This document shows positions 12,668-39,195 of a stretch of DNA of 44,305 nt, in pieces. Each line of letters opens with the position of its first letter. Position 1 is the first letter of the stretch. The position numbers and the translations under genes are program-made. Below the pieces are notes generated by a model, which worked only from the letters and a program-made list of their open reading frames with translations, was not told where the DNA came from and did no database searches. Origin of the DNA: a virus; the IMG/VR virus record IMGVR_UViG_3300037200_000146, positions 1-44,305 of that record, one strand, 5' to 3'.

Positions 12668-12850
12668 TTGCTAGAAAAGCTTGGGTTATCGTTTACAGCC
12701 ATTTTTAACAGTGCAAGAACCACGGTCGATGGTGGATGGAGAATAACCTTTGATCTCTCAAACACCGATTCAGACAAAATTTCCGAAATCGCTGCCCTTC
12801 AACATCAACTTTTACAAATAGCTATTATCCCAATTGGTGATTCTGAGTGA
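12668..12850 (+). CDS. Hypothetical protein
   Basis: TTG start after a strong SD. The stop overlaps the methyltransferase GTG start. Confidence 0.45.
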   Translation: MLEKLGLSFTAIFNSARTTVDGGWRITFDLSNTDSDKISEIAALQHQLLQIAIIPIGDSE

Positions 12851-14337
12851 TTCATCACGGCTGTTGTCTTGATATTCTAAAAACCCTCCAAGAAAATTCA
12901 GTCGATTCTGTAATTACAGACCCGCCTTATGGCCTAAGCTTTATGGGGAAGAAATGGGATTATGACGTTCCTTCAATCGATATTTGGCGAGAGGCTCTTA
13001 GGGTTCTTAAGCCTGGTGGGCATCTACTTAGCTTTGGTGGGACTAGGACGTATCATCGGATGGCTGTGGCTGTCGAAGACGCGGGATTCGAAATAAGAGA
13101 TCAAATTCAATGGCTGTATGGTTCGGGTTTTCCTAAATCGCATAATCTCAAAGATGAGTGGCAAGGATGGGGATCGGCTTTAAAGCCAGCGAATGAGCCT
13201 ATATGTCTCGCGCGAAAGCCTTTATCTGAAAAGACCTTGGCTTTGAATGTGCAGAGATGGGGGACGGGGGGATTGAACATTGATGCGAGTAGAGTTGAGG
13301 CTGCTGACCAAGCCACTTTAGACGCCGCAGTGAAGCGAATGGCCGGCAACGAAGTGACTGGGTGGGTGACGTCTGGTTCTAAATCGGTACAACCAAAGTC
13401 GGCCCAAGGCCGCTTCCCCGCTAATCTAATCCTAGATGAGCAGACATCTCTTATGCTCGATGAGCAGAGCGGTCAGTCTCGCGGAGACTCGCGATTAAAG
13501 AAAATTCATGTAGGGGCGGCGGGGAACGGAAATACTCATGGTCATATGTCCCCAGCGCAAAATGGTAGCCCCTGCTACTCCGATTCAGGCGGCGCAAGCA
13601 GGTTTTTTCTACGCGTAAAATATGATAATGCTGAATTATGTGGAAACGAGAATATAAAGGCCGCCGTTATGTCTGTTGGAAGGAAAACGGTAAACAGAAA
13701 AGACAACTTGAACATCGATGGGTCTATGCGCAAGCCAATGGACCAATTCCAGATGGGCACCATATCCATCACAGAGATGGGAACTCACTCAATAATGAGC
13801 TTTCCAATCTTGAATGCCTCCACAAAGATATTCACTGGGACTTGCACAATCGAGACCGCGAGGACCATAGAAAAATCTTTGGTAGAGAATGTCGAAGGTG
13901 TCAGCGTTGTCAGCGATACAGAAGTCTTGCTTCATTTACCAAACGAAAAGCAGGAACGTATCACGGGTATTGTAAACCTTGCGTTAGAGAGTATCTCAGT
14001 GAGTGGCGAGATAAAAACCGTGAACATTGGAACTCATATCACCGAGAGTACCGGAGCAAGTAGATTCCTATATTGTGCGAAGGCCAGTAAATCAGAACGC
14101 AATGGCTCAACGCATCCAACCATGAAACCCATAAAGCTCATGACCTATCTTTGCCGCCTTATCACCCCGCCTAAAGGAATTATTTTGGACCCATTTATGG
14201 GAAGCGGTTCCACAGGAGTTGCGGCTAAGAACCTAGGCTTTGAATTCATCGGCATTGAGCGTGAAGCTGAATATGTAGAAATCGCTAAGCGTAGAATCAT
14301 GAAAATAACACAAGATTACAGCGAAAGACTGTTATGA
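12847..14337 (+). CDS. Beta-class DNA methyltransferase (N6-adenine likely) interrupted by a 154-codon in-frame insertion
   Basis: Motif IV is SVITDPPYG. Also present are HPTMKPIKLMTYL and motif I ILDPFMGSGSTGVAA near the C-terminus. GASRF occurs twice (13591.. and 14053..), flanking non-methyltransferase-like sequence. Confidence 0.85.
   Translation: MIHHGCCLDILKTLQENSVDSVITDPPYGLSFMGKKWDYDVPSIDIWREALRVLKPGGHLLSFGGTRTYHRMAVAVEDAGFEIRDQIQWLYGSGFPKSHNLKDEWQGWGSALKPANEPICLARKPLSEKTLALNVQRWGTGGLNIDASRVEAADQATLDAAVKRMAGNEVTGWVTSGSKSVQPKSAQGRFPANLILDEQTSLMLDEQSGQSRGDSRLKKIHVGAAGNGNTHGHMSPAQNGSPCYSDSGGASRFFLRVKYDNAELCGNENIKAAVMSVGRKTVNRKDNLNIDGSMRKPMDQFQMGTISITEMGTHSIMSFPILNASTKIFTGTCTIETARTIEKSLVENVEGVSVVSDTEVLLHLPNEKQERITGIVNLALESISVSGEIKTVNIGTHITESTGASRFLYCAKASKSERNGSTHPTMKPIKLMTYLCRLITPPKGIILDPFMGSGSTGVAAKNLGFEFIGIEREAEYVEIAKRRIMKITQDYSERLL
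13606..14067 (+). mobile_element. 462-nt insertion in the methyltransferase carrying an out-of-frame HNH gene (boundaries approximate)
   Basis: The GASRF duplication is offset by exactly 462 nt. The copies differ only synonymously (ggc gca agc agg ttt versus gga gca agt aga ttc). Confidence 0.6.
13638..14063 (+). CDS. HNH homing endonuclease overprinted on the methyltransferase ORF in a different frame
   Basis: EHRWVYAQANGPIPDGHHIHHRDGNSLNNELSNLECLHKDIHWDLH is an HNH_3 pattern, followed by a CRRCQRC...CKPC Cys cluster. (13638-12847) mod 3 = 2. Confidence 0.8.
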   Translation: MWKREYKGRRYVCWKENGKQKRQLEHRWVYAQANGPIPDGHHIHHRDGNSLNNELSNLECLHKDIHWDLHNRDREDHRKIFGRECRRCQRCQRYRSLASFTKRKAGTYHGYCKPCVREYLSEWRDKNREHWNSYHREYRSK

Positions 14338-14669
14338 CATTTAAAGTTGGAGATCCAAGGCCTCCAAATGCTGGAAAGAAAAAAGGGAGCAAAAGTAAAA
14401 AGTCACTTCTTGTAAAAGAGATTCTTGATAGCCACGGCATAAATTTAATTGAGAAAATAAACCAAAAAATTCCTCTATTGGCGGCCGATGAACAAGTTAA
14501 AACTTACATTGCCCTGCTCCCATACGTTTATCCAAAGCTCACCGCAATAGATCATTCAGGAACAATAACAACCAACCAATCGGGCTCTATCCAAGTTAGA
14601 TTATCGGAAGATGAACTAAAGGCCGAACTAAACGAAAACCTTAAAAAATTAAAGATGCTAGATGAATGA
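14334..14669 (+). CDS. Putative small terminase subunit (DUF5681-like N-terminus)
   Basis: Contains FKVGDPRPPNAGKKKGSKSK. It lies immediately upstream of, and overlaps, the large terminase. Confidence 0.45.
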   Translation: MTFKVGDPRPPNAGKKKGSKSKKSLLVKEILDSHGINLIEKINQKIPLLAADEQVKTYIALLPYVYPKLTAIDHSGTITTNQSGSIQVRLSEDELKAELNENLKKLKMLDE

Positions 14670-17166
14670 ACCACTCATTAAAGCAGTCAAATTCTCAAGA
14701 GCACTGCGTATTGAGCGAGCAAGAAAAGAGCTCCTCGCATTCACAGTCCTCACAAAACCTGACTACCAGGTCAGTTGGCACCACAGAAAACTCTCTGCCA
14801 AGCTTGATGCTTTCGCCCGAGGAGACATCAAGTTTCTCATGGTATTCATGCCCCCACGGCATGGTAAGCTGTGCAGCGTGGATACCCCAATAATGACGCC
14901 AAACGGACTCACAACTCACGGCAATATCAAAAAGGGGGATTATGTTTTTCATCCCAGCGGAAAACCCATAAAGGTATTAGCTAAAAGCAGCCCCATTAAA
15001 TCAAACGCCAAGATTTATTTCTCAGATAGTTCGATAATTGAATGTCATTTAAATCATGAATGGACTGTTTTTGATCGGAGTTACGGTAGAGAGTTTACCT
15101 ATGAAACCCACCATTTTTTAAAGAAAACAAAATTTGGAAAAAAGATGAATTGTTTTTCTGGTGGAAGATCGAAATATCAATTACCTGAAATTTCAGCCCT
15201 TGAGTTTAAAGAAGCTGTTTTGCCAATGCATCCTTATGTATTGGGCGCATGGCTTGGAGATGGTACATCTAAAGCTCCTAGAATTACTCATGCACCTTCG
15301 GACAATGCGGTTATAAGTAAAATAGTTTCTTTAGGATTCAAAGTATCAAGCATAACCGTTCACCCAAAGTCAGGATGTTTAACCACAGCCTTTGCTGGAA
15401 CAAGGAACAATGCTGGCCCCATGAACGTTTCTCTGAAAAATCTTGGTTTAATAAAAAATAAACATATTCCACAAAAATATAAATTATCTTCAATTGAGCA
15501 GCGTTTAGAGCTCATAGCCGGTCTTATTGATACAGATGGGCATGTAGAGCCAAAAACGGGTCGAGTTAGAATAGTAACTGTCTCTAAAAAACTAGCCGAT
15601 GATATCTCTGATGTCGCTACAACTCTTGGATGGCATCCATATGTAACAATTCAAGAACCATCTCTTTCGAGTAGTGGGATACAGGGAAGAAAGTCTGTTT
15701 ACACGGTAGGATTTCAACCTGACAGAGAAATACCAGTGGCCTTAGATCGGAAAAAAATTAAGCGATTTGCTAAACGTAGACGAATAGGGATAGTGAAAGT
15801 CGAAGAAACAACAGATGGTAAATTAGGCCATTGCATTCAGGTGGATTCCCCAGATGGGCTATATCTTGTGGGAGAAAAACTTATCCCTACACACAATTCT
15901 GAGCTTGTTTCTCGCCGACTCCCCGCATTCCTCCACGGACTCTACCCAGACTGCGAAATCATGGCGGCTTCTTACCTGGATACGTTGGCTTCTGACATGA
16001 CCATTGACGTTCAAAACATCATCGATAGTCCACTTTATAAGGAGGTTTTTCCTGAAACATCTATTTACCCGCCAGGGACCAGCTACACTAAAGGAACAAG
16101 AAACTCTTCCGAGCATCACATTATCGGTCGAAGAGGTAAATATCGCGGCCAAGGTGTCGGAGGTTCTTTCACTGGAAAAGGGGCCAATTTCATAATTATC
16201 GATGACCCGATTAAAGGACGGGAAATTGCAGATAGCGTTGCATTTCGAGAACGACTCTGGAACTTCTACAACAACGATTTATTCTCACGGCTCGAGACCA
16301 ATCTTGAAACGGGAAGACAAGGGCAAATCCTAATCACTCAGACGCGCTGGCACGAAGATGATCTCTCGGGACGCCTCCTTGAACTAATGGCAAAAGATAA
16401 AAACTCGATTCAATGGGAGATTTTATCCTATCCAGCAATTAGGTGTGATATGGACACCGAGTCCGATACTAGAAAAATTGGCGAGCCGCTTTGGCCTGAG
16501 AAATACAACATTGATCAGCTAAATCAAATCAAAGCCAGCATCGGTCCGCGCGCATGGGGATCTCTTTATCAGCAATCACCAGTCCCAGATGGCGGCGGTT
16601 TATTTAAAGATGAGATGTTTGGCTTCTGCGACGTGAGCATTAAAGACGTTAGCTATTCATTCATTATGGCTGATACGGCCTACAAAGAAAAACAAGAGAA
16701 TGATTTCACTGTCTTTACACTCTTCGGCGTTAAAGAAGAACAGCTCTTTGTCGTCGATGTGTTACGGGCACAAATAAAGGCCTCGGATATCGAATCAGCA
16801 TTTGAGCCATTTGTTAGAAAATACTGTAGAACTTATGGATATCGTGGAACTTATATTGAGCCAAAGGGTCATGGGATTTACCTAAATCAAGCTTGGGCCA
16901 AGAAGGGTCTCATGATTCCAGGCGATACAGATATCGAGGAATTCTACAAGGACAGGCGCTTTGATAAAGTTGAGCGAGCTAATAACGTTGTTCCGCATCT
17001 TGCTAATCGTAAGGTTTACTTCAATAATCTTATTGGGAACAAGGAAGACTTAGTTGCGGAATGCTTAACATTTCCAAAGGGCAAGCATGATGATTTTTTA
17101 GATACTTTAGTTGATGGCCTAAAAATGGCTTATGGGCGATCAATATCAATGTTTGATGTTTACTAA
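14662..17166 (+). CDS. terL: Terminase large subunit, intein-containing
   Basis: The extein has a P-loop-like MPPRHGKL|...|SELVS, then FIIIDDPIKG (Walker B-like) and a nuclease-half motif pattern (ADTAYK..., HDDFLDTL). Confidence 0.85.
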   Translation: MNEPLIKAVKFSRALRIERARKELLAFTVLTKPDYQVSWHHRKLSAKLDAFARGDIKFLMVFMPPRHGKLCSVDTPIMTPNGLTTHGNIKKGDYVFHPSGKPIKVLAKSSPIKSNAKIYFSDSSIIECHLNHEWTVFDRSYGREFTYETHHFLKKTKFGKKMNCFSGGRSKYQLPEISALEFKEAVLPMHPYVLGAWLGDGTSKAPRITHAPSDNAVISKIVSLGFKVSSITVHPKSGCLTTAFAGTRNNAGPMNVSLKNLGLIKNKHIPQKYKLSSIEQRLELIAGLIDTDGHVEPKTGRVRIVTVSKKLADDISDVATTLGWHPYVTIQEPSLSSSGIQGRKSVYTVGFQPDREIPVALDRKKIKRFAKRRRIGIVKVEETTDGKLGHCIQVDSPDGLYLVGEKLIPTHNSELVSRRLPAFLHGLYPDCEIMAASYLDTLASDMTIDVQNIIDSPLYKEVFPETSIYPPGTSYTKGTRNSSEHHIIGRRGKYRGQGVGGSFTGKGANFIIIDDPIKGREIADSVAFRERLWNFYNNDLFSRLETNLETGRQGQILITQTRWHEDDLSGRLLELMAKDKNSIQWEILSYPAIRCDMDTESDTRKIGEPLWPEKYNIDQLNQIKASIGPRAWGSLYQQSPVPDGGGLFKDEMFGFCDVSIKDVSYSFIMADTAYKEKQENDFTVFTLFGVKEEQLFVVDVLRAQIKASDIESAFEPFVRKYCRTYGYRGTYIEPKGHGIYLNQAWAKKGLMIPGDTDIEEFYKDRRFDKVERANNVVPHLANRKVYFNNLIGNKEDLVAECLTFPKGKHDDFLDTLVDGLKMAYGRSISMFDVY
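14872..15897 (+). mobile_element. Intein (342 aa) with a LAGLIDADG homing endonuclease domain
   Basis: Starts CSVDTPIMTPNG and ends LIPTHN|S. The two LAGLIDADG motifs are LGAWLGDGTS and IAGLIDTDGHV. Confidence 0.85.
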
Positions 17167-17187
17167 ATAGTTTCAGGGGGACAACGG

Positions 17188-19365
17188 GTGGGCAAAAAAG
17201 TTACAAAGAAGAGCGCTATTAAAAATGTTTCACGTGGAACAAAAAAGGTCGAGAACGCAAGCGCAAATGAATTCATAGGGTTCGGTCAGCCTCCATTTGG
17301 AGGCTTAGCTGGCATTCCAGGCGGCCAAACATTTCAACCCGTTGAAGACACCACAACAATGTTTACCAATCTTCGTTGGTATCTCATATCAAACTTTAGA
17401 CAAGTCCTCTCTCAAGGTTATGTGGAGCTAGGACTAATACAAACCATTGTGAACGTTCCTATTGATGATGGATTGCGGGGCGGAGTTTTGCTTAAATCCA
17501 GACAATTAGATGAAAGCCAAATCAGGGAACTCCAAATATCACTCGACCGTGACGACGATATCAATACATGCGGATGGGCAGCAAAGTGGAATAGATTATA
17601 CGGTGGTGCTGGAATTCTTATACTCACAGATGATCAAGACCCCGAAGAACCATTCGACATCTCAAAAATCACGAAAGATACGGACTTAGAGTTTCGCGCT
17701 GTAGATATGTGGGAGCTGTTCTGGGATAAACAGAACACCGAAGGATATGACCCGCAAATCCAAGCGCAAGATTTTGAGTTCTACAGCTATTACTCCGAAA
17801 ATATTCATAAATCGCGAGTCATGCGTCTTAAGTCCATTCAGGCTCCAAGCTTTATTCGTCCACGCTTAAGGGGTTGGGGAGTTTCGGTTGTTGAGGCGCT
17901 AGTTCGCTCCATCAATCAATACCTAAAAGCAACAGACCTTGGCTTTGAAGTGCTCGATGAATTTAAGATCGATTACTATAAGCTAAAAAACCTAGCCAGT
18001 TCTCTTCTCTCCCCTAATGGTTTCGAGAAAACAGCTAGACGAATTCAGAATATGAATCTGCAAAAGAACTATAACCATGCCGTTGTAATGGATACCGAGG
18101 ATGATTTCATCCAAAAGCAGTTGTCCTTTGCGGGCTTGGCTGAGGCAATGGACGGTATTCGTATGCAGGTCGCGGCCGACATGAGGATGCCCATAACAAA
18201 GCTCTTCGGGACTTCGGTTAGCAAGGGATTCGCAACAGATCAAAACGACATGGAAAACTACAATTCCATGGTCGAATCTGAGGTAAGAAACAAACTCAAA
18301 TACGACATTCTTCGAATATGCGAAATTAAATGCCAAAAACTATTTGGATTTATCCCAGATGACATGGAGCTTGAATTCAAACCGCTTCGTGAGCTTAGTG
18401 CCATTGACCAAGAAACGGTTCGCACGCAGAAATTCACAAGACTTCAAGCTGCGGCCGATACGGGCCGTATTTCACTTCAAGAATATAGGGATGCAGCTAA
18501 CAAGGGTAATCTCTTTGATATTCAACTCGATACCACAGAAGACGGTATCGACATTGGTGACAACGAAGAAACTGAAGTCGCAGGCGAGGAAGAATCGCGT
18601 GATCCCGAAAAGGATTTAGACGTCGAAGATCCGGGCGCTAATCGAGAAGACACGAGAAAAGTTCGAGCCGATATCAATGTAGAGCCCACTGCGCCAGGCG
18701 CAAAGAAAATGAATTTTAAAAATGAAAAGAAGTTTGAGGAATCGAAACATCCTAGAGCCGATGATGGAAAATTTGGAAAAGGTGGCAGCTCTACTACATC
18801 AAAAAAATCCATTAAGCGGGACTCATTAGTTCCGCAAGGAGAGGTTGGGACTCTTTTAAGAGAACATAAGGAAGATTTCGAAAAACTAGGTAAAGCCGAG
18901 CCTGAATTGAAAACGGCGATTTATGAGTGGAGTCGTGCAGGTTATCAATATGCACGCGCTCTTCAACAAGGAAAAAAATTAAAAGGAGAAGAAAAGGAAA
19001 TTGGTGAAAGTGTATTAAATGGAATGCACGCCAATTTCGATAAGCTTCCCATTTATGAGGGCCCGTTAACAAGAGATCTTCAATTCGATGATTGGGATCA
19101 GGCGTTGAATGTTTTTAAACCAGGAAACACTTTTGAGACAGATGCATATAGTTCCTTTACGGCTAAAGAGGGGTATAGCAATAGGAAATGTCGATTAATT
19201 ATAGAGAAAAATACTAAGGGCAGAGCTGTTTGGGGCCTATCTCAAGCTAAGGATGAGGCAGAAGTTATTGTACCCAAAGGGCAAAAATATGTTATTGACA
19301 AGGTGCGTCAAAACGACGATGGTCCTCCTTACGTATTGGTGTATTTAAAAGAGGTGAATGAATGA
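17188..19365 (+). CDS. Portal protein (DUF1073-like) fused to a C-terminal ADP-ribosyltransferase-like domain
   Basis: 725 aa, directly after terL. An acidic linker is followed by the R-S-E pattern LTRDL, AYSSFT and DEAEVIVPKG. Confidence 0.7.
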   Translation: MGKKVTKKSAIKNVSRGTKKVENASANEFIGFGQPPFGGLAGIPGGQTFQPVEDTTTMFTNLRWYLISNFRQVLSQGYVELGLIQTIVNVPIDDGLRGGVLLKSRQLDESQIRELQISLDRDDDINTCGWAAKWNRLYGGAGILILTDDQDPEEPFDISKITKDTDLEFRAVDMWELFWDKQNTEGYDPQIQAQDFEFYSYYSENIHKSRVMRLKSIQAPSFIRPRLRGWGVSVVEALVRSINQYLKATDLGFEVLDEFKIDYYKLKNLASSLLSPNGFEKTARRIQNMNLQKNYNHAVVMDTEDDFIQKQLSFAGLAEAMDGIRMQVAADMRMPITKLFGTSVSKGFATDQNDMENYNSMVESEVRNKLKYDILRICEIKCQKLFGFIPDDMELEFKPLRELSAIDQETVRTQKFTRLQAAADTGRISLQEYRDAANKGNLFDIQLDTTEDGIDIGDNEETEVAGEEESRDPEKDLDVEDPGANREDTRKVRADINVEPTAPGAKKMNFKNEKKFEESKHPRADDGKFGKGGSSTTSKKSIKRDSLVPQGEVGTLLREHKEDFEKLGKAEPELKTAIYEWSRAGYQYARALQQGKKLKGEEKEIGESVLNGMHANFDKLPIYEGPLTRDLQFDDWDQALNVFKPGNTFETDAYSSFTAKEGYSNRKCRLIIEKNTKGRAVWGLSQAKDEAEVIVPKGQKYVIDKVRQNDDGPPYVLVYLKEVNE

Positions 19366-26695: not shown

Positions 26696-27444
26696 CAACT
26701 CTCGCGCTTTCCCAATCTAAAACAGCAGTTGGAGCTAATATTACGGCATCGTTTTTGGCGACGGGAGGGACGTCGCCTTATACGTATTCCGTTCGCAGTG
26801 GGGGTGCCGGAGGAACAATCAATAGCTCAACTGGGCTCTACACGGCACCCCCTGCGGTTAGTCCAAATCCTTTACAGCTTTATGACACTATCCAAGTGGC
26901 AGATAATGCCAGCCCTAAGAATATCGCAACGGCCCAAATCTTTGTTGGAACTCCACTTCTTCTTTTCTGTGACATCATTCAAAATCAAATGGGGCTTGAT
27001 AACAACCACATTTATCTTTGGGAACAAAAGCTTTTCCAGCCAACCGATTCAAGTCTTTATGTAGCTGTCTCGGTTCTCTCATGTAAGCCGTTTGGGAATA
27101 CGAACTATTTTAACGGTTCAACCCAACAATCCATTCAATCGGTGAATATGTATGCCCAGCTTCAATTAGACATTATCTCCAGGGGACCTGCGGCCAGGGA
27201 TCAAAAAGAACTTGTGATTATGGCTCTTAACTCTAACTATTCACAAAGCCAACAACAAGGGAACGGCTTCTTTATAGGCGAGCTTCCTCCCGGATCTCAT
27301 TTTGTAAACTTATCAAACATAGATGGGGCAGCGATTCCATATCGATTCGCGATCTCTGTGGCCATGCAATATTTCGTCCAAAAGATTACGGCTGTTCCGT
27401 ATTTCAGTTCTTTCCCAACACCAACGGTGATCACAAATGCCTAA
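26692..27444 (+). CDS. Virion protein with an N-terminal Ig-like domain
   Basis: ATGA-coupled start MTTLALSQ. Contains GGTSPYTYSVRSGGAGGTINSSTGLYTAPP. Confidence 0.5.
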   Translation: MTTLALSQSKTAVGANITASFLATGGTSPYTYSVRSGGAGGTINSSTGLYTAPPAVSPNPLQLYDTIQVADNASPKNIATAQIFVGTPLLLFCDIIQNQMGLDNNHIYLWEQKLFQPTDSSLYVAVSVLSCKPFGNTNYFNGSTQQSIQSVNMYAQLQLDIISRGPAARDQKELVIMALNSNYSQSQQQGNGFFIGELPPGSHFVNLSNIDGAAIPYRFAISVAMQYFVQKITAVPYFSSFPTPTVITNA

Positions 27445-27457
27445 CGGAGGATTTTAA

Positions 27458-28888
27458 ATGGCTAACTTACCCTTTTCAGAAGTAGTAACGGTATCGGTCG
27501 CACAAGCGCCGGTCGGTGCTGCCGAATACAACACTAGCAACATTGCTATTTTTTCAAATGAAGTTTATGCGGATACCTTTGGAGATCTTGGATACCAAAT
27601 CTATCTCTCTCCACAACAAGTTGGGATTGATTTCGGCACCAATTCCAATACCTATCAAATGGCAGTGGCGATTTTCTCCCAACAACCAAATATTCTTCTT
27701 AATGGAGGATACCTGGTCGTTATTCCATTTGTTAATGCGGTTCAAACTTTGGCCCTTTCTGGAGTTGCGGCGAGCGGGACTTTTGAACTGACTCTTGGGG
27801 GGAATACTTCGGCCGCTATCAACTGGAACGATTCGGCTTCTGTTATTCAAGGAAAGCTTGTAGCTGCCTGGACTCAAGTGCCGGGAGTGGTTGTTTCTGG
27901 TTCAATTGCATCTGAATCTCTTGTGATTAGCCTGGATGGTCTATATGGACCCCAAAGCCTTATTACTGTGAGTGCAAATTCACTTATGACATCAGGTTCA
28001 GTTGCCATTACGGTTACGCCGTCAACCACGACTCCCGGTGAAACGCTAACCGGGGCAATTAACAGAAGCCAAGGACTTGTTCAATACTTTGGTATCATGG
28101 GAACTCTGATCTTTGATCAGGCCGATACTTTAGCTGCGGCCGCTGTGATTCAAACTATCAATGCTCTTGGATTCTTTGGCTCACGCACTGAAGCGGATAT
28201 TGAACCAGCAGGCACGCTTGATCTCCTAAGAAGTGGAACCCTTACACAGAGTCGAGGCCTCTATTATGGGGGTTCAACTGATTTGTCGGTCCTGCAGTTT
28301 ATGGCAGCTTATGCGGGCCGTGGTTTGTCAGTTGTTTTCTCAGCATCACTGACAACTCTGACCATGAATTTGAAACAACTCTCAGGCATTCAACCTGACC
28401 CATCCATGACTCCTGCGATTAAAGCTCTGGCAGAAGCTGCCGGAGCCGATATCTATGCAAGCCTTAATGGAACTCCTGGGGTCATCTCTTTCGGTGCCAA
28501 TGATTATTTCGATGATCAATACAATATCCAATGGTTTGTGGGAGCGCTTCAAATCGCTCTTTTTAATCTCTTACAGGCAACCTCAACCAAGATTGCACAG
28601 ACCGAGAGTGGCATGTATCAGCTTAAAAACGCAGCTCGGCAAGTGTGCGAACAAGCCGTTTCTAACGGGTTCTTGGCTCCAGGTTCCTGGAATAGCTCTG
28701 AGTTCTTTGGGAATCAGGCGCTATTTATCTCTAATATTTCACAACAAGGTTACTACATTTACTCAAGCCCCATTTCTGAACAGTCCGAGAGTATCCGAAT
28801 TGCTAGAGAAGCCCCGTTAATCCAAGTCGCAGTTAAATATGCAGGAGCCATCCAAACGGCATCGCTCCTTGTGATCGTGAACCAATAA
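27458..28888 (+). CDS. Tail sheath protein (DUF3383-like)
   Basis: 476 aa, immediately upstream of the tube, chaperone and tape measure genes. The N-terminus is MANLPFSEVVTVSV. Confidence 0.65.
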   Translation: MANLPFSEVVTVSVAQAPVGAAEYNTSNIAIFSNEVYADTFGDLGYQIYLSPQQVGIDFGTNSNTYQMAVAIFSQQPNILLNGGYLVVIPFVNAVQTLALSGVAASGTFELTLGGNTSAAINWNDSASVIQGKLVAAWTQVPGVVVSGSIASESLVISLDGLYGPQSLITVSANSLMTSGSVAITVTPSTTTPGETLTGAINRSQGLVQYFGIMGTLIFDQADTLAAAAVIQTINALGFFGSRTEADIEPAGTLDLLRSGTLTQSRGLYYGGSTDLSVLQFMAAYAGRGLSVVFSASLTTLTMNLKQLSGIQPDPSMTPAIKALAEAAGADIYASLNGTPGVISFGANDYFDDQYNIQWFVGALQIALFNLLQATSTKIAQTESGMYQLKNAARQVCEQAVSNGFLAPGSWNSSEFFGNQALFISNISQQGYYIYSSPISEQSESIRIAREAPLIQVAVKYAGAIQTASLLVIVNQ

Positions 28889-37485: not shown

Positions 37486-39195
37486 ATGAAAAAGTATCTA
37501 GCAATTTTACTAGCTATATCTAGCAAAACCTTTTCGGCAAACGTTCCTATTTCTCAACTTCCCCTTGAATCGGCGTCGGCTACTGGTGTTAATGATTCTC
37601 TACCATTTGTTTCTGCAACGGTAGATATCACCAAAAGAGTGACTCTTTGGGATCTTATAAATCTCCCCCCCATGGTTTCCACATATGCGCCTTTGGCTAA
37701 TCCTACATTCACAGGGGTTGTCACGGCTCCTTCGTTTGTAGGATCTTTGACGGGGAACGCTACAAATGTCAGCGGAACAGTTTTAGTTGGGCATGGTGGA
37801 ACAGGTCTAACGTCTCCTGGGACAAGCGGAAACGTCCTGACATCAAATGGAAGTGCGTGGGTAAGTTCAGCTCCATCGACTAGTGGAACAGTAACTTCAG
37901 TAGCGTTAACGACTCCATCTTGGCTTACGGTTGGTGGATCACCCATTACATCGAGCGGAACTTTAGCTGTTACCGGAACAAGCGAGAGTCAAAACTTATT
38001 CTTAGCCTCCCCTAACGGATCAAGCGGTGTCATGGCACCAAGAGCGATTGTATCGGCAGATGTTCCAACCCTTAATCAAAATACAAGCGGAACCGCCGCT
38101 AACATTACAGCCACTTCAAATTCCTCGCTAACAACGCTATCGGCTTTAAGTCTTCCGGCCACTCAATTATCGGGAACCCTTCAGGCAGCACAGTTTCCAG
38201 CACTCTTAGGTGATTTAACCACAACCGCTGGCTCCCTTTCCACAGTTCTTGCCTCGGTTAACTCTAATGTCGGGTCATTTACTAACGCCAATATTACAGT
38301 GAATGCGAAGGGTCTTATCACTGCTGCAGCGAATGGGACGGCAGCATCGTTTACGGCTCCCCTTCCTGTGCCCTACACCAGCATTTCAACAACGGGTTAT
38401 GTTTTTACGGTCTCAAGTGCGAATGCCACAGTTGGAGCGACTTATACAAACAACAGCAATACCTATACGGTTTTATCGACGATTTCATCTGGAACTCTTT
38501 TGTTCTGTTCTCAAGCAAGCGCACCTACATCTACTGGAACTCTAACAAAGGCCAGCGGAACGGGGGATTCGACCATAACCTTTACGGCAGAACAAGCTAT
38601 TGGGACATACACGGTTCCAACATCCCCGGCCCCTTTATATCTCTCAATTGAGGTTTACGGAGGAGGCGGAGGAGGAGGAGCAAATGGCACAGGAAATCCC
38701 GGAGGCGGATCAGTTACAACTCTCAGTCTTTTTGGTTATTCAGGTGTTATTGCAACAGGTGGTACGGGAGGCACTGCATCGACTGGTGCGGGTGGAGTGG
38801 CCGGGGCCGCGACTGTAAATTCTCCTTATCAAGTTATCTCAAAAGGTGGGGAAAGCGGAGCTGCGGCTGGCGGAAGCGGTCAAGCGGCCGGCGGCGTTGG
38901 CGGAGAAACCCCTCTCTTTGGCCGCGGAAGCGGTGGAACTGGTGGAGGTGGAGCAGGTGTCTCGGCTGTTACCAATAGTGGGGCCGGTGGAGGCGGTGCT
39001 GGTGGTTATGCATCAGATGGAGGGGCCGGCGGCGGCGGCGGCGGGGGATGGGCCAAGGTCATTTTAAGTAGCCCTTCTGGGACTTATCCCGTAGCACTTG
39101 CAACAGGCGGAACAGGTCCTACGGCCGGTGCAGGTGGTTATGGCGGAGGGGCCGGGGGGAGCGGATACGTTGTTATCACTCCTTACTATCAATGA
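37486..39195 (+). CDS. Tail fibre / receptor-binding protein with a glycine-rich C-terminal domain
   Basis: Contains PLANPTFTGVVTAPSFVGSLTGNATN (fibre repeat) and C-terminal GGGGGGG... tracts. The N-terminus MKKYLAILLAISSKTFSA is signal-peptide-like. Confidence 0.65.
   Translation: MKKYLAILLAISSKTFSANVPISQLPLESASATGVNDSLPFVSATVDITKRVTLWDLINLPPMVSTYAPLANPTFTGVVTAPSFVGSLTGNATNVSGTVLVGHGGTGLTSPGTSGNVLTSNGSAWVSSAPSTSGTVTSVALTTPSWLTVGGSPITSSGTLAVTGTSESQNLFLASPNGSSGVMAPRAIVSADVPTLNQNTSGTAANITATSNSSLTTLSALSLPATQLSGTLQAAQFPALLGDLTTTAGSLSTVLASVNSNVGSFTNANITVNAKGLITAAANGTAASFTAPLPVPYTSISTTGYVFTVSSANATVGATYTNNSNTYTVLSTISSGTLLFCSQASAPTSTGTLTKASGTGDSTITFTAEQAIGTYTVPTSPAPLYLSIEVYGGGGGGGANGTGNPGGGSVTTLSLFGYSGVIATGGTGGTASTGAGGVAGAATVNSPYQVISKGGESGAAAGGSGQAAGGVGGETPLFGRGSGGTGGGGAGVSAVTNSGAGGGGAGGYASDGGAGGGGGGGWAKVILSSPSGTYPVALATGGTGPTAGAGGYGGGAGGSGYVVITPYYQ

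Follow-up and report, generated by a model that had tools for sequence, protein, structure and literature searches.

An HNH_3 endonuclease gene nested out of frame in an uninterrupted phage DNA methyltransferase reading frame

The DNA analysed here, called the window throughout, is the stretch from position 1 to 44,305 of the virus record IMGVR_UViG_3300037200_000146 in IMG/VR, which is 44.3 kb long and has a GC content of 43.9%. It contains a gene for a beta-class DNA methyltransferase with an insertion of 462 nt at a conserved motif, and this insertion is nearly filled by an HNH_3-type homing-endonuclease gene that lies on the same strand in a different frame. The methyltransferase frame, called the host frame here, runs through the insertion without a stop codon. 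The features of the locus, numbered from the first letter of the window, are the following.

12847 to 14337, plus strand: gene for a beta-class N6/N4 DNA methyltransferase, a single open reading frame (ORF) of 496 aa with the insertion and 342 aa without it
12919 to 12930, plus strand: DPPY catalytic motif (motif IV), 5′ of the insertion; D25, P26, P27 and Y28 are invariant in the alignment
13591 to 13605, plus strand: left GASRF copy, GGC GCA AGC AGG TTT, the native end of the GGASRFF motif
13609 to 14070, plus strand: insertion of 462 nt, 154 stop-free host-frame codons; 13606 to 14067 is equally valid owing to the repeat ambiguity
13623 to 13634, plus strand: three stops in the HNH frame before the HNH ATG (TGA at 13623, TAA at 13626, TGA at 13632)
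13624 to 13629, plus strand: GATAAT, a hexamer resembling a -10 box, 8 nt upstream of the HNH ATG
13638 to 14063, plus strand: HNH_3 homing-endonuclease gene of 141 aa, ATG start, frame +2 relative to the methyltransferase
13707 to 13847, plus strand: HNH catalytic core, LEHRW...HHIHHRDGN..NN..NLE...H...H, with H44, H45, N57, H66 and H70 invariant in the family
13899 to 13982, plus strand: C-terminal zinc ribbon, CxxC...CxxC, with C88, C91, C112 and C115 invariant in the alignment
14053 to 14067, plus strand: right GASRF copy, GGA GCA AGT AGA TTC, overlapping the HNH C-terminus and its TAG stop
14071 to 14334, plus strand: C-terminal part of the methyltransferase, in frame with the N-terminal part, with YCAKASKSERN, HPTMKP (14113 to 14130) and FMGSGST (14194 to 14214)

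The methyltransferase ORF matches the Pfam family PF01555 (N6_N4_Mtase) at 6e-34 (118 bits, cut-off 26.7), and DPPY precedes the FxGxG AdoMet motif, the order that, read from the sequence, identifies the beta class. The copy of the gene held in the JGI database (P0001) is read straight through as a single ‘DNA modification methylase’ of 464 aa. When the insertion is deleted from the query, thousands of homologues are found at 55-67% identity, most of them 320-400 aa long and carrying a single GGASRFFY(C/V)AKAS motif. A preliminary description of the locus, made from the letters alone, held that family members normally have this motif once. GGASRFFY.AKAS does occur once in 55 homologues, while a subset of the family has two copies of GGASRFF, bordering a duplicated target-recognition module. 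In a MAFFT alignment of 56 sequences, the left copy (G249-F254) and Y409 of the window protein fall on the family motif, and all other sequences have a gap between them. The empty sites of two close insertion-free homologues (L070 and L071) read GGASRFF followed directly by YVAKAS, with the DNA GGC GGC GCC TCC CGA TTT TTC / TAC GTG GCG AAG; the stretch in L070 is GGCGGCGCCTCCCGATTTTTCTACGTGGCGAAGGCA. Alignment to uninterrupted homologues thus places the insertion between GGASRFF and Y.

Read in the host frame, the insertion begins LRVKYDN and ends ITESTGASRFL, and it includes the stretches LRVKYDNAELCGNENIK and IFTGTCTIETAR. It is absent from the closest homologues (P0002, P0005 and P0006, 59-67% identity), a Pfam search of its 154-codon host-frame translation gives no significant family match, and the host-frame dN/dS across it is 1.1-1.8 when the window is compared with six relatives that have the insertion at the same site. 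For these three reasons the 154 codons are judged not to be a native domain of the methyltransferase, in agreement with the earlier impression of a non-native, stop-free spacer. In an AlphaFold model of the full 496-aa protein, built with 55 homologues, the mean pLDDT is 58; the spacer has values of 23-62 and contains a small helix-hairpin-helix at residues 335-382.

The two GASRF copies are exactly 462 nt apart, and four of their five codons differ at the third base, always synonymously, as first described. The full five-residue repeat is specific to the window. In every carrier of an insertion at this site the left border is an exact GGASR(F/Y)F, and R-F-x-Y is regenerated ahead of xAKAS at the right border, where the relatives of the window element keep only R-F-x-Y. 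In most carriers the HNH stop overlaps the codons just before this right R-F-x-Y, usually as xxT followed by AGR. In L003 and L060 the HNH ORF extends slightly further into the host sequence.

Residues 26-63 of the HNH protein match Pfam HNH_3 (PF13392) at 8.7e-14 (51.3 bits, cut-off 24.8). The gene ends with a TAG at 14061-14063, which straddles the AGT and AGA codons of the right GASRF copy. The ORFs and Pfam matches therefore bear out the preliminary description of an HNH_3-type gene that is overprinted out of frame in the methyltransferase and ends inside the right repeat. From 13635 onwards, and not before, the HNH frame is open. The idea that a frameshift joins the methyltransferase N-terminus to the HNH protein was rejected, since the three HNH-frame stops directly before the ATG exclude any product that enters this frame from upstream. 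Compared with the six same-site relatives, the HNH frame has a dN/dS of 0.10-0.14 with a pS of 0.63-0.84, so synonymous sites are saturated. Judged by these ratios the HNH protein is under purifying selection, and it is presumably a constrained, active endonuclease.

How the HNH gene may be expressed is suggested by the DNA just upstream of its start. TATAAT stands at the place corresponding to GATAAT in L055, L057 and L063, and GGAGG or AAGGAG is also present in L057 and L059. In a sister lineage (L009-L011) a consensus sigma-70-like element, TTGACA-17 nt-[CG]ATAAT, lies just upstream of the nested HNH gene, with a -35 box formed by the methyltransferase's own G-L-D codons. A scan of the window for sigma-70 promoters and terminators found no full promoter upstream of the HNH ATG, and its overall counts were at the shuffle level. 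An internal promoter giving a leaderless or short-leader HNH mRNA is possible.

Relatives of the HNH protein come from searches of IMG/VR and JGI metagenomes that were anchored on HNH proteins and are therefore unbiased with respect to openness of the host frame. The window HNH protein has 16 metagenomic relatives in this set (46-72% identity). For 15 of them the HNH+1 frame holds a long ORF that spans the HNH gene, each time a methyltransferase of the PF01555 type; in the remaining case the HNH domain, 42% identical, is an in-frame portion of a 1,067-aa ORF. All close relatives in IMG/VR are likewise spanned by an open methyltransferase frame. The searches together yielded 37 distinct HNH ORFs that are embedded in a host gene (6,526 codons), and not one of them contains a host-frame stop; their third frame has 7.7 stops per 100 codons. 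In 24 relatives that stand free, the density is 5.9 per 100 codons in one alternate frame and 9.6 in the other. Under a codon-usage null, log10 P summed over loci is -72, a value that is an upper bound on independence because the loci are related, although synonymous sites are saturated. The comparative evidence is decisive, and chance is untenable as the source of the open host frame: the lack of any host-frame stop in 37 embedded genes, despite saturated synonymous sites, shows selection for openness. Only the absence of stops is conserved in the host frame, the spacer peptide being free to change.

The part of the methyltransferase downstream of the insertion follows the opposite pattern to the spacer. 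In the carriers it has a pN/pS of 0.28-0.49, with pS saturated, and HPTxKP and FxGSG are intact. These values indicate that the C-terminal part is under purifying selection across deeply diverged carriers.

Within the window itself the open frame is far less striking. When synonymous codons are redrawn from window usage with the HNH protein held fixed, the host frame is open in ~8% of trials, with a mean of 2.0 stops. If the probability is instead computed from the mean +1-frame stop density of the window genes (5.24 per 100 codons), P is ~5e-4. If the HNH gene's own codons are shuffled among synonymous positions, 77% of trials have an open host frame, but this control is uninformative because stop avoidance is built into the codon and residue composition. 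T is at codon position 2 in 12.8% of the window HNH codons, while the genome-wide figure is 27% and that of free-standing HNH_3 relatives 22%. Of the 18 codons with T at this position, just two end in A or G, and neither precedes a purine. The suggestion of selection for openness, made at first from the single 154-codon stretch, is thus upheld by the comparative survey, whereas the codon controls within the window lend it little weight. Other long ORFs of the window also contain stop-free runs of 100-136 codons in an alternate frame, all with junk-looking translations, so long off-frame open stretches are not rare in this genome. There are six of them.

28410 to 28817, plus strand: alternate-frame open run
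26696 to 27061, plus strand: alternate-frame open run
38286 to 38648, plus strand: alternate-frame open run
18287 to 18616, plus strand: alternate-frame open run
38652 to 38975, plus strand: alternate-frame open run
27489 to 27788, plus strand: alternate-frame open run

The GGASRFF site is occupied by HNH genes of 50-72% identity in methyltransferases whose N-terminal parts are only 35-49% identical. Carriers include L003, with an N-terminal part of 42.6% identity and a fusion to ParB, and L057 (37%). The element is patchily distributed across diverged methyltransferases and missing from the closest ones, a pattern that speaks for mobility and, with the purifying selection on the HNH gene and its invariant catalytic residues, gives indirect evidence for active homing and HNH expression. 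In a sister sub-lineage (L001, L006-L011), with an HNH protein of 36% identity, the insertion follows AKASKSERNAGL. The loop after GFPKS holds a second HNH_3 family (L002, L018-L024, L028-L030), and there the host frame is HNH+2. This second family is related to the published ShiLan HNH (33%, 5e-10). Both families also lie out of frame in the middle of inteins, in terminases (L013-L016) and in methyltransferases (L025-L027, L059). Megablast of the gene against 50,697 GenBank phages gave no match, and tblastn of the HNH protein against the same phages gave none at 1e-5 and only insignificant HNH-core matches at E<=1. Representative genomes of bacteria and archaea, 185,579 in number, were scanned twice, first with the HNH protein and then with a 7-sequence alignment, and neither scan found a relative; a PDB sequence search with the HNH protein returned nothing at E<=1.

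Arrangements of this kind have been published. The ‘ShiLan domain’ of mycobacteriophage methylases is an out-of-frame HNH insertion, with a stop-free insert of 202 aa that hides an HNH protein of 195 aa in the third frame (Arsenault, Gosselin & Gogarten, Genes 2025, PMC11855218). About 11 host residues are repeated across that insert, no intron or intein signals were found, and an AlphaFold model has the insert looping out; the study was computational and arrived at the same read-through interpretation (PMC11855218). The likeness to the window element is close. The methyltransferase family is the same, Mantra gp64 aligning to the window enzyme at 37-59% identity in segments, and in both cases an in-frame, stop-free insert that is a multiple of three is nearly filled by a same-strand HNH_3 gene, offset by 2 from the host frame. 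A host motif is directly repeated across the insert (EPVVVARKP/EPIVVARKP in the ShiLan kind, GASRF in the window), intron and intein signatures are lacking, AlphaFold gives the spacer low confidence and a small helical element, and the distribution is patchy.

The two differ in lineage. The ShiLan kind is inserted after EPxVxARKP, which corresponds to residue ~125 of the window enzyme and is empty there, whereas the window element follows GGASRFF. The ShiLan kind has an HNH protein of 195-229 aa with flanking zinc fingers and a GTG start codon; that of the window has 141 aa, one C-terminal zinc ribbon and an ATG start. The HNH proteins of Mantra and the window share 29% identity over 82 aa, with a pairwise E of 0.003, and have only the Pfam family in common. 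The ShiLan kind is hosted by GC-rich actinophages, in contrast to the 44% GC of the window, which resembles Bdellovibrio phage phi1422, and the HNH lineage of the window, unlike that of the ShiLan kind, has no match in GenBank phages. Since the sites differ and the HNH proteins share only a Pfam family, the window element is of the same kind as the ShiLan domain and not of the same lineage.

Other systems share single aspects of this arrangement. Group I introns with HNH endonucleases, such as I-HmuI of SPO1, also interrupt conserved phage genes at conserved motifs, but they need a ribozyme core and typically have host-frame stops, neither of which is found in the window. The mobE gene in nrdA of Aeromonas phage Aeh1, known for ‘genes in pieces’, is reportedly an HNH homing gene in a conserved phage gene that retains its host function with neither intron nor intein. 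There the host gene is reportedly split into two separately translated ORFs whose products reassemble, with a stop and a restart between them, while the window has one continuous ORF. The helicase-methylase gp60 of Pacc40 has an insertion with an out-of-frame putative HNH gene and an open host frame (PMC11855218). It is a second, independent case of an out-of-frame endonuclease insertion in a phage methylase and differs, by its description, in methylase family, site and endonuclease, the HNH assignment being less certain there. Inteins of Actinobacteriophages can carry a homing endonuclease in a different frame with the host frame stop-free (bioRxiv 10.1101/2025.01.02.630785, from the same group as the ShiLan paper). 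These share the use of another frame, and relatives of the window HNH family occur in just such an arrangement; however, the junk peptide leaves those proteins by protein splicing, while the window element has no splicing domain, and the published endonucleases are endonuclease VII-like, not HNH_3.

Taken together, the element is probably a homing-endonuclease gene that is tolerated as a translated, largely unstructured loop, with nothing being spliced. An HNH_3 gene of the free-standing type, together with a short 5′ leader, would have been inserted as an exact multiple of three between GGASRFF and Y. Ribosomes translating the methyltransferase would read through it in the frame one base downstream of the HNH frame. 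The product would be an enzyme of 496 aa, from which 154 residues of spacer, mostly disordered and free in sequence, would loop out between the target-recognition module and the AdoMet-binding C-terminal part. Selection would purge host-frame stops through depletion of F, L, I, M and V in the HNH protein and through the choice of NTY codons. Translation of the HNH protein would start independently at the ATG at 13638, perhaps on a transcript from an internal promoter, and the element would spread when insertion-free alleles are cut at the conserved motif and the element is copied in during repair.

Several points weigh against this interpretation. The openness of the single window is only marginally unusual given the HNH amino-acid sequence (P ~0.08), a weak argument when taken by itself. 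The AlphaFold model is poor, with both GASRF copies at low confidence, so that the packing of either copy, the copy that is used and the exit of the loop are not visible in it. Upstream of the HNH ATG the window has neither a convincing Shine-Dalgarno sequence nor a full sigma-70 promoter. Both the read-through protein with its methylation and the expression and cleavage activity of the HNH protein are deduced from sequence, here as in the literature. Finally, the frame might be kept open by selection for translational coupling or polarity and not for methylase activity.

This last possibility is the main rival. A premature stop in the host frame would uncouple overlapping downstream genes or cause Rho-dependent polarity, and the read-through protein might then be an inactive by-product. 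The methyltransferase stop does overlap the ATG of the next gene (ATGA at 14334-14337), as it does in L001 and L002, and the methylase is viewed as dispensable in some relatives of phage ShiLan (PMC11855218). A by-product, however, would hardly be expected to keep HPTxKP and FxGSG at the pN/pS of its C-terminal part, or its N-terminal catalytic motifs intact, and the same avoidance of stops is seen where HNH genes sit in terminase inteins, whose host protein is required. An explanation by gene expression is therefore improbable, though it is less so than the remaining alternatives, each of which is unlikely.

It is very unlikely that the 462 nt form an intron, of group I or of another class, that carries the HNH ORF and is spliced from the mRNA, leaving the open frame incidental; removal at the RNA level was the alternative raised in the preliminary description. 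HNH genes are common in phage group I introns, and divergent phage introns are known to escape Rfam models. The short flanking repeat loosely recalls guide-sequence pairing, which was discussed for ShiLan (PMC11855218). On the other side, the covariance-model scan that had been proposed as a check on splicing gave no Rfam match that reached the gathering score anywhere in the window, and none of relevance at E<=10 between 13300 and 14400. RNAweasel was negative for the published relatives (PMC11855218). Apart from the HNH ORF, the insert has only ~29-47 nt upstream and ~7 nt downstream (<~55 nt), which is far too little sequence for a ribozyme core. Splicing would also fail to explain why 37 diverged elements whose synonymous sites are saturated have not one host-frame stop.

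If the spacer were cut out of the protein, through intein-like splicing of a non-canonical type or through proteolysis of the loop, a ligated or two-piece methyltransferase would result; this is slightly less credible still. Such removal would account for translation through the host frame, as in inteins; related HNH genes do lie out of frame in true inteins (L013-L016, L025-L027, L059), and a spacer predicted to be disordered would be accessible to proteases. On the other hand, the 496-aa protein has no Hint or intein match in Pfam, as the preliminary description had already concluded in setting an intein aside. The first residue of the insert is L, M or K, the residue after it is Y or R instead of C, S or T, and there is no terminal His-Asn. 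The unconstrained evolution of the spacer is incompatible with a catalytic splicing domain.

Least likely of all is a disrupted pseudogene with a chance open frame, or a ribosome hop from the first to the second GASRF; the off-frame runs listed above and the matching CTA codons at the junctions (13609 and 14068) speak for these, but the survey excludes chance, the conserved downstream part excludes pseudogenisation, and a hop would make the open frame unnecessary. In T4 gene 60, bypass depends on a stop immediately behind the take-off codon and covers a gap of ~50 nt, while the 462-nt gap here has no stop anywhere.

Homing endonuclease genes have been thought to survive in essential or useful genes only through self-splicing introns, inteins or gene splitting. 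The window element uses none of these: the host protein carries the out-of-frame translation of the endonuclease gene as a loop. The phenomenon itself was already published in 2025, and the window adds an independent example outside actinophages. What is believed to be new is the quantitative evidence, the first of its kind, that the stop-free frame is strongly selected while the spacer sequence drifts. Within one methyltransferase family the arrangement is found at several different sites, and it is found in inteins as well. Nested endonucleases of this kind systematically escape annotation, because gene callers report the long ORF alone. The places that accept an insertion are permissive loops, and knowing them could help in engineering these methyltransferases.

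A broader generalization has about an even chance of being correct. There may be a dedicated HNH_3 clade with a heritable, portable stop-free alternate frame, able to colonise any tolerant position of a host protein with neither RNA nor protein splicing. The duplicated border motif (GASRF here, EPxVxARKP in ShiLan) would serve as a structural adaptor, allowing the spacer to loop out of a fully active read-through enzyme. The positions observed comprise at least 3-4 loops of the methyltransferase family, loops with a CxC...CxxC zinc clasp, and the middle of mini-inteins in methyltransferase and terminase genes. If such a clade exists, it would represent a third general lifestyle of homing endonuclease genes, one that is widespread in uncultivated phages beyond actinophages.

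Inserts of the second HNH_3 family have distinctive borders. They are flanked in the host frame by CxC...CxxC, for example GCDC...CGSCGK in L002:5001-6629 (residues ~120-270), and these flanks may act as a zinc clasp that joins the ends of the spacer. L028-L030 (e.g. L028:2896-3228) have only a remnant of 111 aa, the C-terminal part of a second-family HNH protein, and the host frame between CxC and CxxC is stop-free. In these loci the endonuclease gene appears to be decaying while the host frame stays open.

In the inteins of L013-L016 and L025-L027, the centre is junk in the host frame and an HNH_3 endonuclease lies in another frame; the L014 intein has Hint_2 and Intein_splicing matches. HNH_3 may thus be an additional type of out-of-frame intein endonuclease, beside the published endonuclease VII-like one. 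L059:878-3607 has two nested elements in a single methyltransferase ORF. The first is an intein, YG/CPSEDTEILV...VTGN/SGFPK (slashes mark its ends), whose middle resembles the out-of-frame second-family HNH_3 of the L025-L027 inteins, and the second is an out-of-frame HNH gene of the window's family at a GGASRYF site.

In P0008, P0014, P0015, P0022, P0038, P0040 and P0088 the whole target-recognition module is duplicated in tandem. The duplicated module is bounded by NEPICVARKP and GGASRFF, which are the insertion sites of the ShiLan HNH and of the window HNH. Repair of endonuclease cuts at these two motifs is a speculative source of the duplications. The GASRF pair of the window was also considered as such a duplication and rejected, the spacer having no methyltransferase or Pfam similarity and a dN/dS >1. 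The host-frame NLNIDGS was likewise rejected as a relic of a GLNIDAS motif, NIDG being the +1-frame reading of the conserved HNH EHRW codons.

The window is probably a near-complete genome of a phi1422-like phage. A portal-like ORF (17167-19362, plus strand) is 51% identical to the portal of Bdellovibrio phage phi1422, whose genome is 45.4 kb. Two genes downstream of the methyltransferase, the terminase large subunit (14662-17166, plus strand, 834 aa) contains an in-frame LAGLIDADG intein in which the motif LIAGLIDTDGHV is visible, with Pfam matches over residues 269-342 to LAGLIDADG_3 (4e-8) and Hom_end (2e-7). It is a second homing element in the window, of a conventional type.

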